Source: Candidatus Omnitrophota bacterium (GTDB lineage Bacteria > Omnitrophota > Gorgyraeia > Tantalellales > Tantalellaceae). From it: 38,369 nt of DNA. Under the pieces are notes generated by a model that searched no databases, was not told where the DNA came from, and saw nothing but the letters and a program-made list of their open reading frames with translations. Shown here in pieces: positions 2,751 through 30,726 of this stretch (position 1 is the stretch's first letter; every line of letters starts with the position of its first letter). The position numbers and the translations under genes are program-made. The stretch covers positions 1-38,369 of the forward strand of contig JBDRFA010000124.1 of assembly GCA_043819235.1 (NCBI GenBank), written 5' to 3'.

Positions 2751-3694
2751 GAGCCTTTCCGTTCCTTCCAATGGCGGACTGTTCGGCGCAGGGCTTCTTC
2801 TGTTGGGACGGAAGGCGCGTATCCCAGGATCTCGCGTGACCGGGAAATATCGTAGGCCCGGTCCTTTCCTATGGATCCTATCTTTTTTCTCAAAAAAGGC
2901 ACGGCCGCCAGGATCCGCACAACCCATGCCGGTATTACGGGCGGATACCCTTTGCCGAGTTCGTCGTAGATAAGTTCCACGAATTTCCTTAATGTTATGG
3001 CCTCTTCATCCGCCACGATGAACGTGCCCTGAAGGGCCGCGTCGTTTTTGAGCGCGAGGATAAGCGCCTGGACGACGTTCCCGACGTAACCCAGCTGAAG
3101 TTTCGAGTCCATCGCCGGCACGTCGAGGACCGGTATGCGCCTCGATGACGCCAATTTCAGGATCCTGCCCAGCGCATGCGGTTCTTCTTCGCCGTAGATC
3201 ATGCAGGGCCTGATCATCACGGCTTTAAGGCCCTTTTCCCTGTATTCCGCCACTATCCTTTCAGCCTCCAGCTTCGACTGGCCGTACGCGTTGTTCGCCC
3301 TGCGGGGCATATCGTCCGTCAGGGGCGTTTCCCTGTTCCCGCTGACCACCGCGACGGAACTTAAGTAGATGAGCCGCCCTACATCCGCCCTGAGGCACGC
3401 TTCACAGATATTGCGCGTGCCTGTGACGTTCGTCCGGAAGAGCCTGGATTCGTCCTTTTCCATAACGGAAGCGGCGCAATGAAAAACGGCTTCGGGACGG
3501 TTACGGGCGAACGCTTCAAGGACCGCCCCGGCATCTGTTATATCACAGTTTACCAGAGTTACGCCCGCCTTTTCAAGGAACGCGGTGTCGCTTGTCACCC
3601 TGACGGTACAGGCCACCTCATGGCCCTCCTCAAGCAGGCGTTCAACAAGGCGCTTCCCGATAAAACCGGTCGAGCCCGTTACGATCATCCTCAT
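2741..3694 (-). CDS. NAD-dependent epimerase/dehydratase family protein (extended SDR)
   Basis: GSTGFIGKRL Rossmann motif at the N-terminus and a YGQSK (YxxxK) catalytic motif. I trimmed the track ORF to the ATG at 3694, which forms an ATGA overlap with the upstream stop. Confidence 0.75.
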   Translation of the reverse strand: MRMIVTGSTGFIGKRLVERLLEEGHEVACTVRVTSDTAFLEKAGVTLVNCDITDAGAVLEAFARNRPEAVFHCAASVMEKDESRLFRTNVTGTRNICEACLRADVGRLIYLSSVAVVSGNRETPLTDDMPRRANNAYGQSKLEAERIVAEYREKGLKAVMIRPCMIYGEEEPHALGRILKLASSRRIPVLDVPAMDSKLQLGYVGNVVQALILALKNDAALQGTFIVADEEAITLRKFVELIYDELGKGYPPVIPAWVVRILAAVPFLRKKIGSIGKDRAYDISRSREILGYAPSVPTEEALRRTVRHWKERKGSGS

Positions 3695-4030: not shown

Positions 4031-4127
4031 ATCCGAACGGGGACGACCGCTATGCTCCTACCGGGGGCCCCTCCGCCCGGTGTGGATCCTCCCCCGTACG
4101 GAGCATAGCGCTCATCCCCATTCGGAT
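4031..4127. repeat. conserved-core/variable-arm hairpin element, copy a (core inverted relative to the others)
   Basis: Inner arms cgctatgctcc (4048-4058) and ggagcatagcg (4100-4110). Outer arms atccgaacgggga (4031-4043) and tccccattcggat (4115-4127), with one mismatch. The core at 4059-4099 is a close reverse-complement variant of the core in copies b-d. Confidence 0.8.
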
Positions 4128-6183: not shown

Positions 6184-6234
6184 AACTTAGATCCCTCGAC
6201 TTCGCGCCCTAAGGGCGCTCCGCTCGGGATGACA
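6184..6234 (-). repeat. start-proximal box element, long form (upstream of uvrB)
   Basis: Plus strand aacttagatccctcgacttcgcgccctaagggcgctccgctcgggatgaca. Apart from the 3-nt hairpin loop it is identical to 25925-25975. It ends 18 nt from the uvrB ATG. Confidence 0.85.
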
Positions 6235-6301
6235 AAACATTTTAAAACGGTTGAATGCAAAGCCCCATTATACCTCATCTGAGAAACTTTCTTCTCAAGG
6301 A

Positions 6302-6339
6302 GGGCCGGGTATCCTAAGCCGGGCCGGGTATCCCAAGCC
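6302..6339. repeat. tandem 19-nt direct duplication
   Basis: gggccgggtatcctaagcc (6302-6320) and gggccgggtatcccaagcc (6321-6339) differ at one position and run into the left arm of hairpin copy b. The unit resembles the 3' part of the conserved core (ggcccgggtagg). Confidence 0.8.
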
Positions 6340-6420
6340 GGGGTCGGCTGCTATGGCCCGTACCGGGAGGATCCACACCGGGCGGAGGGGCCCGGGTAGG
6401 GCCATAGCAGCCGGCCCCGG
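6338..6420. repeat. conserved-core/variable-arm hairpin element, copy b
   Basis: Arms ccggggtcggctgctatggcc (6338-6358) and ggccatagcagccggccccgg (6400-6420): 21 bp with one G-T pair. The core is cGTACCGGGAGGATCCACACCGGGCGGAGGGGCCCGGGTAg. Confidence 0.85.
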
Positions 6421-6455
6421 CGCCACGTACCGCAGGGAACGCCTGTACCGGACCG

Positions 6456-8135: not shown

Positions 8136-8327
8136 CCGCCAAAGGATGGCATATGCCCATATGGACTATTAGCAGATCTCAGGATCTTTTATGACTTTTG
8201 AGGGAAAAAGTGTAAAAGACTGTCTGAGCCCGCGAAACGGGCGAGTTTCTTTTACACCCCTCGAAAGTCAGAAAAGATCCGTTAAGAGGTCTGCGTGTCC
8301 ATATGGGCATATGCCATCCTTTGGCGG
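8136..8327. repeat. 192-bp palindromic element with perfect 31-bp terminal inverted repeats (MITE-like or long-hairpin RNA)
   Basis: ccgccaaaggatggcatatgcccatatggac (8136-8166) is the exact reverse complement of 8297-8327. The interior is also largely self-complementary (gcagaYctc, ggatcttttNtgactttYgaggg, tgtaaaaga), with the apex hairpin GCCCG-CGAAA-CGGGC. Confidence 0.85.
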
Positions 8328-16238: not shown

Positions 16239-16251
16239 TCGTCACCCTCTC

Positions 16252-16286
16252 TCGATCCACGATTCACCATTCACGATCCACGCCCC
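16252..16286 (-). repeat. 7-nt tandem array, GTGAATN family
   Basis: Heptads ctcgatc, cacgatt, caccatt, cacgatc, cacgccc lie between the hom stop (16292) and the thrC start (16238). Confidence 0.75.
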
Positions 16287-16291
16287 CCCGA

Positions 16292-17593
16292 CTACTCTTC
16301 GATCCTGACCACTACCGTCTTGTCCGAAACGTACTCCAGGGTATCGATCTTTCCGATAGCTTCCCTCATGCTGCCTTCCCTGGCCTTATGCGTTATTATC
16401 ACGACGGGCACCTTTTCGCCCTTTTTCCTCTCTTCCTGTGAAACACTGGCGATGCTTATGTTGTTCTCCGCGAGAATGGAAGATATCCCCGCCAGAACAC
16501 CCGGGTTATCGATGACTGAAAACCTCAGGTAATAAGATATCCTCAGTTCTTCCATACGGTTTATCTGTTTATCTTCGGGGGCGTAATGCATCCTGCACGG
16601 TAAAGTATTTTCATCGCCGACGAACGCGATATGTTTTCCTATACCGACGATATCCCCCAGCACCGCGCTTGAAGTGGGCTTCCTGCCGGCGCCTTTACCG
16701 AAAAGAAGCGACTCCCCTATAAGATCCCCTTTGATATAAACCGCGTTATCCTCCCCTCTCACGTCCGAAAGGAGATGCGACGACCGGAGCAGCGTGGGGT
16801 GCACACGCAGCTGGAGCCCGTAAGGCGTGTCCTTCGCTATGGCTAGAAGCTTCAGGCTGTAACCCATCTTTGCGGCGTTCTTGAGATCCTCGGGGCCTAT
16901 ATTCGCGATACCTTCGGTATAAATATCGTCGGGCGATATATCCATCCCGAAACTGATCCTGGAAAGTATGGCCAGTTTGTGCGCGCTGTCCTTACCGCTT
17001 ATGTCGAGCTCGGGGTCCTTCTCGGCTATACCTTTCTCCTGGGCCACTTTCAACGCGTCGCTGAAAGAACGTCCGTTCTCCGACATCCGGGTCAATATGA
17101 AATTAGTGGTGCCGTTCAGGATACCATAGACGGTATTGATGTTATCGGCGACAAAACTTTCGCGCAAGGTCCGGATAACGGGGATAGCGCCGCCCACGCT
17201 GGCCTCGAAGTTCACAAAGACCTCGTTCTCTGAGGCAACCGTGAATATCTCCTTCCAGCACTTCGAAAGGAGCGCTTTATTCGCCGTGACAACATGTTTT
17301 TTGTTCCGCAAAGCGTTAAGCACTACGTCTTTAGCGGCTGTCACTCCGCCGATCAGCTCGACGATTATATCTATATCTTTGTTCCCGATCAGGTCGTCGG
17401 CACATGCTGTCTTCAGTACCTCTTCCCCCGCGCCGACGCTTTCCAGCGCTTTCTTATCTTTGTCGCATACGCCTTTTATCACCAGCGAAAGCCCTGTCCG
17501 CCGCGAGATCAAGTCCCCGTTACTGACGACCGCGTCATACACACCTTTGCCGATGGTGCCGAGACCGACCAATCCTATGTTAACCGTTCTCAT
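16292..17593 (-). CDS. hom: homoserine dehydrogenase with C-terminal ACT domain
   Basis: VGLVGLGTIGKGV NAD-binding motif, a conserved catalytic domain and a C-terminal ACT-like region. AAGGAG RBS upstream. Confidence 0.92.
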   Translation of the reverse strand: MRTVNIGLVGLGTIGKGVYDAVVSNGDLISRRTGLSLVIKGVCDKDKKALESVGAGEEVLKTACADDLIGNKDIDIIVELIGGVTAAKDVVLNALRNKKHVVTANKALLSKCWKEIFTVASENEVFVNFEASVGGAIPVIRTLRESFVADNINTVYGILNGTTNFILTRMSENGRSFSDALKVAQEKGIAEKDPELDISGKDSAHKLAILSRISFGMDISPDDIYTEGIANIGPEDLKNAAKMGYSLKLLAIAKDTPYGLQLRVHPTLLRSSHLLSDVRGEDNAVYIKGDLIGESLLFGKGAGRKPTSSAVLGDIVGIGKHIAFVGDENTLPCRMHYAPEDKQINRMEELRISYYLRFSVIDNPGVLAGISSILAENNISIASVSQEERKKGEKVPVVIITHKAREGSMREAIGKIDTLEYVSDKTVVVRIEE

Positions 17594-17606: not shown

Positions 17607-17623
17607 AAGTTAGATCCCTCGAC
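17607..17623 (-). repeat. start-proximal box element, short form (upstream of hom)
   Basis: aagttagatccctcgac, 13 nt from the hom ATG, with the AAGGAG RBS in between. Confidence 0.75.
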
Positions 17624-18796: not shown

Positions 18797-18826
18797 AAAA
18801 GGGGACGGTAAATACCGTCCCCTTTT
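18797..18826 (-). terminator. intrinsic-terminator-like hairpin (potentially bidirectional)
   Basis: AAAAGGGGACGG (18797-18808), loop TAAATA, CCGTCCCCTTTT (18815-18826). On the minus strand the stem is followed by TTTTCTTTAT. It lies about 140 nt downstream of the 129-aa ORF. Confidence 0.6.
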
Positions 18827-18965
18827 CACTCTGGAGGCATGAAACCGCATGTTGGTACAGTTTCACGTTATTTCTTCAGGATCATCTCCACAAATAACAT
18901 CTGGCATTTCAACAAACACAGTTTAGCGATAGCTCTAAATATGGAATATATCCGCGACATCCTGT

Positions 18966-21997: not shown

Positions 21998-22025
21998 GTA
22001 GGGGCACGGCGCGCCGTGCCCCTAC
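21998..22025. repeat. 28-nt perfect palindrome, GTAG-type (REP-like)
   Basis: GTAGGGGCACGGCGCGCCGTGCCCCTAC, between the lepB stop and the pgsA start. It is identical to 26004-26031. Confidence 0.85.
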
Positions 22026-24445: not shown

Positions 24446-24470
24446 AAGTTAGATCCCTCGACTTCGTGCC
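24446..24470 (-). repeat. start-proximal box element, short form (upstream of lepA)
   Basis: aagttagatccctcgacttcgtgcc, 19 nt from the lepA ATG. It fills most of the 47-nt spacer after the PGM/PMM stop. Confidence 0.75.
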
Positions 24471-25924: not shown

Positions 25925-25975
25925 AACTTAGATCCCTCGACTTCGCGCCCTTCGGGCGCTCCGCTCGGGATGACA
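25925..25975 (-). repeat. start-proximal box element, long form (upstream of PGM/PMM gene)
   Basis: aacttagatccctcgacttcgcgcccttcgggcgctccgctcgggatgaca, 26 nt from the ATG at 25898. It contains the internal hairpin GCGCCC-TTC-GGGCGC. Confidence 0.85.
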
Positions 25976-26003
25976 ACTCTTTTTCATCCCTCGCTTGGCC
26001 CGG

Positions 26004-26031
26004 GTAGGGGCACGGCGCGCCGTGCCCCTAC
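26004..26031. repeat. 28-nt perfect palindrome, GTAG-type (REP-like)
   Basis: GTAGGGGCACGGCGCGCCGTGCCCCTAC. The rpe stop codon (26028-26030) falls in its last bases. Confidence 0.85.
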
Positions 26032-29475: not shown

Positions 29476-29591
29476 AACTTAGATCCCTCGGCTTCGTGCC
29501 CTTTGGGCACTTCGCTCCCCTCGGCTTCGCTCGGGACAAGCGGGATGACAAAGAGTTGTCATCCCGAGATCGGGACAGAGAGTTGTCATCC
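29476..29591 (-). repeat. start-proximal box element, extended mosaic form (upstream of ruvX)
   Basis: aacttagatccctcggcttcgtgccctttgggcac... is followed by a second ccctcggcttcg, the perfect hairpin cgggatgacaa-agag-ttgtcatcccg (29541-29566), and a repeated agagttgtcatccc. It lies 13 nt from the ruvX ATG. Confidence 0.8.
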
Positions 29592-29676
29592 CCCTGCCCC
29601 TCTGACACCTTGACACTCTACCCCCCCACTTAAGTTCCCGGCATTTTCTTTACCCTCTGTCCACAAACGTCGCGTT

Positions 29677-29769
29677 TCCCGCCCGGGGTGTTCGCTTTAC
29701 CCCGTACCGGGAGGATCCACACCGGGCGGAGGGGCCCGGGTAGGGGTAAAGCGAACACCCCGGGCGGGA
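29677..29769. repeat. conserved-core/variable-arm hairpin element, copy c
   Basis: Perfect 25-bp arms tcccgcccggggtgttcgctttacc (29677-29701) and ggtaaagcgaacaccccgggcggga (29745-29769), around the same core. It starts 5 nt after the trpA stop. Confidence 0.9.
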
Positions 29770-29774
29770 TAGGC

Positions 29775-30629: not shown

Positions 30630-30726
30630 CTTCTCGCGTGAGGTGTTCCCTATGCTCCGTACCGGGAGGATCCACACCGGGCGGAGGGGCCCGGGTAGGA
30701 GCATAGGGAACTCCTCACGCGAGAAG
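30630..30726. repeat. conserved-core/variable-arm hairpin element, copy d
   Basis: 29-nt arms cttctcgcgtgaggtgttccctatgctcc (30630-30658) and ggagcatagggaactcctcacgcgagaag (30698-30726), with one mismatch, around the same core. It lies in the trpB-trpA spacer. Confidence 0.9.

Follow-up and report, generated by a model that had tools for sequence, protein, structure and literature searches.

A candidate family of dispersed intergenic hairpins in Omnitrophota with a frozen apical loop on a covarying stem

The trpA-ruvX spacer of a Candidatus Omnitrophota bacterium (contig JBDRFA010000124.1, of which a stretch of 38,369 nt, called the window here, was analysed) holds a hairpin that recurs elsewhere in the window, and this locus raises the question of what kind of element keeps its centre nearly unchanged from copy to copy while the arms around it differ and still pair. 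Three cores in one orientation and an inverted variant had been listed in a preliminary description. The 39-nt core GTACCGGGAGGATCCACACCGGGCGGAGGGGCCCGGGTA gave exact plus-strand matches at 6360-6398, 29704-29742 and 30659-30697, as against none in any of 100 shuffled windows; a 22-mer common to the core was also found inverted at 4068-4089, where the core variant reads GTACGGGGGAGG...GGGGCCCCCGGTA; and a covariance model run on the window returned exactly four copies, each enclosed by an inverted repeat over the same interval, which bears out the listed arrangement.

29672-29774, plus strand: copy c, the reported locus; 91.7 bits with the covariance model, -82.8 kcal/mol, z = -9.7; 5' arm 29677-29703, GTA 29704-29706, CC 29707-29708, invariant 29-mer 29709-29737, GG 29738-29739, GTA 29740-29742, 3' arm 29743-29769.
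30630-30726, plus strand: copy d; 90.7 bits, -73.1 kcal/mol, z = -8.8; 5' arm 30630-30658, GTA/CC 30659-30663, 29-mer 30664-30692, GG/GTA 30693-30697, 3' arm 30698-30726.
6337-6421, plus strand: copy b; 88.7 bits, -72.5 kcal/mol, z = -7.8; 5' arm 6337-6359, 29-mer 6365-6393, 3' arm 6399-6421.
4031-4127, minus strand: copy a, inverted; 79.3 bits; 29-mer 4065-4093 on the minus strand.

All four copies were folded by RNAfold into one unbranched hairpin, with energies of -72 to -83 kcal/mol and z-scores of -7.8 to -9.7. The arms pair with each other at every locus, as had been proposed, with 27 perfect pairs in copy c (the 25 counted earlier was too low); 14+14 pairs with one T·T mismatch between them in copy d; 23 pairs, one of them G·U, in copy b; and 16+11 pairs including G·U in copy a, where the G·U pairing exists only on the core strand, the closing helix carries a compensatory change to C-G plus GGGGG/CCCCC, and the core strand folds at -73.5 kcal/mol against -62.0 kcal/mol for the complement. 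The compensatory example given earlier was found again: copies a and d read CTATGCTCC/GGAGCATAG where copy b reads CTATGGCCC/GGGCCATAG. The word 'locus-specific' for the arms had to be given up, since arms of different copies and genomes are homologous and are always found together with the core: GGTGTTC is common to copies c and d, GCTATG to copies a, b and d, and the same arm family (..CGTTTGCCATGCTCC..) is present in other Omnitrophota genomes. Compared by sequence, the window arms are diverged versions of one putative ancestral arm and not truly specific to their loci.

Each copy lies in an intergenic spacer just 3' of a stop codon, in agreement with the first reading: copy c 5 nt past the trpA stop in the 313-nt trpA-ruvX spacer; copy d 16 nt past the trpB stop in the trpB-trpA spacer; copy b 34 nt past the nadC stop in the nadC-uvrB spacer, adjoining two other repeats; and copy a 67 nt past the uvrB stop (the neighbours uvrB, nadC, trpB, trpA and ruvX were assigned by Pfam, and nearly all window genes are on the minus strand). 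No T-tract terminator was called on the element hairpins in the window and the loop measures 23 nt, so an intrinsic terminator was ruled out, as the preliminary description had also held for the canonical kind.

The species-representative genomes were scanned with the core 20-mer GGATCCACACCGGGCGGAGG, and the matches listed comprise 88 loci at the least, spread over about 30 species-level MAGs, with at least eight loci from each of several genomes; nearly all of the MAG labels among these matches are Omnitrophota, with some Planctomycetia, Deltaproteobacteria and Bdellovibrionota, and the GC content of the host loci ranges from 35 to 69%. The host of the window fits this picture: its TrpA matches Omnitrophota proteins, the best at only 72% identity. 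The copies are extragenic, mostly near gene 3' ends, and occur in both orientations; in host genomes they are intergenic passengers and not terminators. Omnitrophota are known mainly from MAGs, and we know of no repeat element or RNA family described for them; a literature search on Omnitrophota repeats, hairpins, palindromes, RNA motifs and the core and basal strings returned nothing relevant. The core had no match in viral contigs, and BLAST against plasmids and phages gave none. As far as these sequences go, the element, termed here the X-hairpin, is a previously undescribed dispersed hairpin repeat family of Omnitrophota and a few other lineages.

For the anatomy of the element, 90 distinct copies of about 85-105 nt were extracted and aligned. 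The apical 29-mer GGGAGGATCCACACCGGGCGGAGGGGCCC, made of GGG, the 23-nt loop AGGATCCACACCGGGCGGAGGG and CCC, is essentially invariant among them; at the nine 29-mer positions outside the search word, 10 of 810 residues depart from the consensus, and a model search of 627 kb yielded one extra copy without the exact word, through a single A-to-G change. Copies recovered through their basal stem and not through the core carry 0-1 core substitutions each (three changes in 6 x 29 positions), so this estimate of core conservation is free of ascertainment through the core. Beneath the GGG/CCC helix follow two covarying pairs, a small purine-rich internal loop and a stem of 20-35 bp. The internal loop of Omnitrophota copies is either GTA/GTA (type 1, including all four window copies) or tandem GA/GA (type 2). 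The outermost stem is the least conserved part of the element, and the 90-copy alignment contains no conserved tetranucleotide at the hairpin foot, GTA being confined to the internal loop, and no conserved promoter or flank beyond the hairpin.

The stem behaves quite otherwise than the loop. Column conservation is 0.43-0.46 in the stem against about 1.0 in the loop, while 81.7% of the stem cells are in standard pairs against 51.2% in shuffles. The covariation score reaches 0.723, as compared with 0.196 for shuffled alignments and 0.13-0.20 when partners are slid; the 90 copies are mutually related, and these pairing and covariation figures therefore overstate independence and significance. Of 26 pairs, 23 have changed on both sides; most stem positions show every one of the four Watson-Crick pair types, and the same hairpin is predicted independently by RNAalifold. 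The covariance-model check suggested earlier thus came out in favour of the hairpin, with covariation well above both controls, and the initial view that pairing is kept while sequence varies around a conserved module extends to the 90 copies. Stem pairing is most probably under selection, and a loop that is about 1% variable across hosts of 35-69% GC cannot be neutral.

These observations bear on a passive account, by which template switching copies one arm from the other and the loop looks conserved since the arms mutate faster. Long near-perfect palindromes are known substrates for quasi-palindrome correction by template switching, and the arms do evolve far faster than the loop. Against this, the non-Watson-Crick loops GTA/GTA, GA/GA and UGA/GCAGGA persist uncorrected, the mismatches are polar along the element though its orientation is random relative to replication and transcription proxies, and the near-absence of variation in the 29-mer is not neutral. 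Pure templating of arm from arm, one of the ideas first offered, is a misfit with the conserved internal loops and the strand-asymmetric mismatches, and we consider the passive account very improbable.

The core-strand 29-mer (window 29709-29737 and equivalents) carries the G-tracts GGG, GG, GGG, GG and GGGG, and a G-quadruplex is conceivable on this sequence. Its complement is C-rich, and the tip of that strand would fold a helix of 5 bp, UCCGC/GUGGA, at a point where an A·C mismatch stands on the core strand.

Strand polarity was observed throughout the alignment. Outer-stem mismatches read on the core strand comprise 64 G·T against 20 A·C and 51 G·A against 8 C·T, and the core strand folds more stably than its complement in 68 of the 90 copies. 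Sorted by context, G·T outnumbers A·C by 20:5 where the copy is sense to its neighbours, by 24:8 where it is antisense and by 11:2 where the context is mixed. Orientation itself follows no neighbour: by crude ORF calls, 23 copies are flanked same-same, 15 opposite-opposite, 14 divergent and 6 convergent; orientation relative to the coding-strand majority splits 44:46, and relative to GC skew 41:49, the skew being a weak replication proxy that is 0.86 correlated with gene strand. The mismatch polarity belongs to the element and not to the host. Selection in place on host mRNA predicts a reversed sign in antisense copies, and none was seen, which argues against a cis role in host transcripts; the independence of the asymmetry from neighbour strand points instead to selection on a single strand intrinsic to the element. 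A role in 3'-end processing or stability of host mRNA, which had been among the first suggestions, is accordingly disfavoured, with orientation random and the G·T/A·C asymmetry following the element's own polarity. Two leading readings are left from the same list of suggestions: a structured RNA, and a REP/MITE-like DNA hairpin recognised by a protein.

The reading we prefer, to which we give a probability of roughly 0.45, is that the X-hairpin is a non-autonomous dispersed hairpin repeat, REP/REPIN-like with the conservation inverted, that passes through a single-strand intermediate in which a trans-acting factor reads the loop. The whole hairpin would be the unit copied to new intergenic sites; copying would run through a single-stranded intermediate of one strand, the one reading GGATCCACACC, either as ssDNA or as RNA; the hairpin would form in that intermediate, its apical loop being read by a conserved trans-acting factor; and selection at this single-strand step would keep the stems paired by compensatory substitutions and freeze the loop. 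The lack of orientation bias relative to the replication proxy, weak as that proxy is, argues against an IS200/IS605-like Y1 mechanism. Recurrent transposase, reverse transcriptase or other partner genes were absent among about 556 flanking ORFs in 8-kb blocks around the copies, where gene calls are crude longest-ORF calls; ORF clustering beside the copies returned recurrent families of housekeeping type only, and a parent IS element for the hairpin was not found among flanking ORFs, plasmids and phages.

Selection for a structured RNA is the main alternative, which we hold to be less probable. It would be a hairpin bound by protein, or else a small self-cleaving ribozyme of a new kind, that became multi-copy through, or as, a dispersed element. 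The active or bound core would then consist of the 23-nt loop, the GGG/CCC helix and, five pairs further down, the G·A loop, while the stem would just pair. An invariant core on covarying helices is what ribozymes and protein-binding RNAs usually show, only one strand tolerates G·U and G·A, and in Omnitrophota copies a tandem G·A, or G·A/U·U/A·G, is conserved with constant spacing from the loop. A C-to-U variant in GGATCC (loci L103 and L208) would keep a wobble pair on the core strand only, and the constancy of the 29 nt in hosts from 35 to 69% GC is easier to reconcile with a catalytic or multi-partner RNA than with known transposase-end pairs. A further point against the preferred reading is that within-genome copies in DAOVKF, CAZNEE and the window are 30-40% diverged in their arms, each still paired, and each copy may instead be under selection in place. 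The evidence on the other side is that there is no conserved promoter or flank outside the hairpin, that random orientation leaves about half of the copies transcribed only as the complement, that the mismatch asymmetry is no stronger in sense copies, and that the G·A loop is absent from the low-GC copies L024, L032 and L079.

The Rfam search proposed at the outset also weighs against an RNA of known class. Rfam 15 at the gathering threshold, applied to the window and 38 loci, matched nothing except tRNA, a fragment of a group II intron and a single off-position SRP RNA, and no family matched the element; at E<=10 there was sub-threshold miRNA-hairpin noise or nothing, and no known self-cleaving ribozyme class, the families covered including hammerhead, twister, twister-sister, pistol, hatchet, HDV-like and SRP RNA.

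Several resemblances were followed and rejected. SRP-RNA mimicry (AGG-UCC..GGA and GGCAGG.CCC) was unsupported by covariance models, the real SRP RNA of locus L162 lying elsewhere; a K-turn reading of the UGA/GCAGGA loop failed by inspection, position 2b being G and not A; a vector polylinker artefact, prompted by the BamHI, SmaI and ApaI sites in the core, is contradicted by many independent assemblies, varied contexts and covariation; and an assembly artefact is ruled out by the many independent assemblies and the covariation. Comparison of the core with the 3' end of 16S rRNA, and with the DnaA-box-like ATCCACA, gave partial matches only, by inspection.

Differential presence was observed between relatives: copies sit at non-orthologous sites in syntenic loci, and their positions are not conserved. 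The closest relative, CAZGQR010000009.1 (TrpA 72% identical), has the window's gene order trpD-C-F-B-A-ruvX, with a trpA-ruvX spacer of at most 16 nt against 313 nt, no hairpin at this orthologous 'empty' site, and a different hairpin, without the core, in the trpB-trpA spacer. Window 16-24 kb has syntenic counterparts in loci L001, L028 and L086, which carry their copies at other positions, the window region itself having a plain terminator in place of copies; canonical terminators are found at window 18799-18828 and in L028. At loci L040 and L065, nadC and uvrB overlap and leave no spacer where the window has copy b and two other repeats.

Near-identical sibling copies are found within JBFZAV, where AT|..|AT stands at the flanks in three of eight, a pattern equally explained as stem extension, the flanks being ambiguous. 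No insertion-junction signature was found among the copies, and neither a target-site duplication nor fixed termini could be defined. In JBDRIH and DAOVKF the hairpin belongs to a larger mosaic unit. In the SMAG MAG loci L017, L039, L068 and L087 the element is nested in a longer hairpin whose closing repeat is GGTGGAGGGCC / GGCCCTCCACC, so that the two tiers together span about 140 nt or more.

Truncated copies were seen at L059:1187-1229, L069:4417-4460, L065:2203-2235 and L041:~3375-3440; three are without the 5' arm (one of these also without the core), and one, directly abutting a complete copy, is without the 3' arm. The polarity of truncation was considered as a retrotransposition signature and set aside, three against one not being significant.

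The modularity of these hairpins suggests another account, in which mobility is confined to the apical module together with about 5-10 bp of the stem belonging to it; this part would insert at the apex of pre-existing hairpins, the arms being older repeats or 3'-end stems, and the composites could spread afterwards. The same 29-mer does sit on unrelated stems, namely the type-1 arms, the basal module GCGGGTGAC..GGCAGGACCCGC described below, the outer repeat of the SMAG MAGs and the AT-rich stems of low-GC MAGs, and the flanks of superfamily bases are again complementary in about half of the matches, read by eye. Set against this, arms without the core were not encountered in 650 kb, truncated copies aside, so that 'arms as pre-existing repeats' was rejected; the arms never occur with a plain loop in X-bearing genomes, the type-1 arms are homologous between genomes and so travel with the core, the orthologous 'empty' trpA-ruvX site is without any hairpin, and insertion junctions have left no signature. 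Entry at the apex is therefore unlikely in our judgement, and movement of the whole hairpin, as in the preferred reading, is retained.

Further repeats were observed in the window. A second family, with its motif on the minus strand at 6184-6243, 17607-17620, 24446-24470, 25925-25984 and 29476-29535, consists of a GC-rich hairpin (GTCATCCCGAGCGGAGCGCCC..GGGCGCGAAGTC) followed by GAGGGATCTAA(G/C)TT and stands always 13-30 nt upstream of a start codon (uvrB, the 433-aa, 600-aa and 474-aa genes, and ruvX), and looks like a shared 5'-leader element. Two identical perfect palindromes headed by GTAG (GTAGGGGCACGGCGCGCCGTGCCCCTAC), of classic REP-like form, lie at 21998-22025 and 26004-26031 and hint that this genome has a RAYT-type system. 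What looks like a separate MITE-like insertion is formed by a perfect inverted repeat of 31 bp (8136-8166 / 8297-8327) around 130 nt containing a hairpin. Tandem heptamers CACGATT/CACCATT/CACTATT occur at 1693-1748, 2667-2763 and 16245-16300, all intergenic, with an inverted pair at 2667-2763, and a tandem duplication of GGGCCGGGTATCCYAAGCC (x2, 6303-6340) directly abuts the 5' arm of copy b. Three different repeats are thus packed into the nadC-uvrB spacer of the window, both genes of which overlap in related genomes.

Type-2 copies end in a conserved base composed of P1 (GCGGG/CCCGC), an asymmetric loop UGA/GCAGGA and then P2. A metagenome scan anchored solely on GCGGGTGAC..GGCAGGACCCGC gave at least 120 loci (L093-L212). 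Among the 121 base matches listed, three have the exact core, three have the core with one substitution, and about 110, as read from the listed sequences, have other tips, commonly with an internal loop CGCGCA/GAGCAC or CCGCAG/GAGGAC, also in strand-swapped form, while some tips are long AT-rich hairpins. The superfamily hairpins measure 76-96 nt and are intergenic, usually 0-30 nt from a gene end, and their flanks often extend the stem with locus-specific complementary bases. Both kinds of tip occur together in Omnitrophota locus L011, at 2167-2263 on the plus strand and at about 1066-1161 as a minus-strand match. The superfamily has no Rfam match and the basal motif none in viral contigs, and no conserved neighbour gene was found beside basal-motif copies, where housekeeping families alone recur. 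A shared base with exchangeable tips suggests a general modular class of intergenic hairpins that RNA and repeat databases have missed.

A bolder proposal, speculative and in our estimate rather improbable, joins these strands: the 29-nt tip may be a new functional module, either a ribozyme core or the recognition loop (possibly a G-quadruplex) of a single-strand mobility system, set in a 'base plus exchangeable tip' hairpin class across many phyla. If so, it would be a recognition-loop module able to sit on, or enter the apex of, unrelated hairpins. Whatever its mode of spread, the X-hairpin supplies a well-delimited motif, together with a covariance model, by which dozens of species can be recognised, and the readings given here are directly testable.

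Compared with known systems, and judged by its sequence features, the X-hairpin is filed as a kind of interspersed palindromic repeat outside any named family. REP, BIME and REPIN elements, which are mobilised by RAYT (TnpA-REP, Y1 HUH) transposases in the case of REP/REPINs, are the closest in habit: like them the X-hairpin is an extragenic, high-copy hairpin of tens of bases near gene 3' ends in either orientation, non-autonomous, folding as a single strand, with genome-specific sequence families that are sometimes mosaic, as in JBDRIH and DAOVKF. Unlike them, it combines a loop that is invariant across phyla with a free stem, whereas REP/REPINs have a conserved, recognised stem with a 5' GTAG, a free loop and species-specific sequences; stem conservation and a GTAG at the foot are both lacking in the X-hairpin, and to our knowledge its 29-nt conservation across hosts of 35-69% GC far exceeds that of any REP/transposase pair. 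With MITEs and similar repeats (Correia/NEMIS, ERIC, RUP, BOX) it shares the form of a small non-coding dispersed inverted-repeat element in intergenic spacers and operon junctions whose presence differs between relatives; MITEs, however, have conserved terminal inverted repeats, a target-site duplication and a variable interior, while the termini of the X-hairpin are its most variable part and do not form conserved terminal repeats matching a parent IS.

The attC sites of integrons resemble it in conserving structure over sequence, in the extrahelical or unpaired bases of the stem, in their location just 3' of genes, and in being recognised as a folded single strand of one polarity, the X-hairpin likewise having one favoured strand; the basal-module superfamily also has, like attC, a 'variable terminal structure'. 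In contrast, attC conserves its base (R/L boxes, GTTRRRY) in one-orientation cassette arrays next to intI, whereas the X-hairpin conserves its tip, has no R''/R' boxes, occurs in mixed orientations in the window and lies beside trp, uvrB, nadC and ruvX genes in conserved synteny. Rolling-circle origin hairpins (the geminivirus/CRESS nonanucleotide loop, pMV158-type dso), whose loop is read single-stranded by an HUH nuclease, have the same invariant loop on a covarying GC-rich stem; those are single-copy, with 9-13 nt loops, 9-11 bp stems and an adjoining rep gene, whereas the X-hairpin is present in many chromosomal copies, has a loop of 23 nt and lacks a neighbouring rep gene. Small self-cleaving ribozymes residing in repeats (hammerhead, twister, HDV-like) are likewise multi-copy and orientation-agnostic with an invariant core and covarying helices, and the X-hairpin differs from them in having no Rfam ribozyme match and in being one unbranched hairpin without an evident junction or pseudoknot. 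Twenty-nine frozen bases on a freely covarying stem are thus the reverse of the REP/MITE pattern and match that of ribozymes and of origin or recombination hairpins; a conserved partner or activity has probably still to be discovered, and the pattern points to a putative function in recognition or catalysis.
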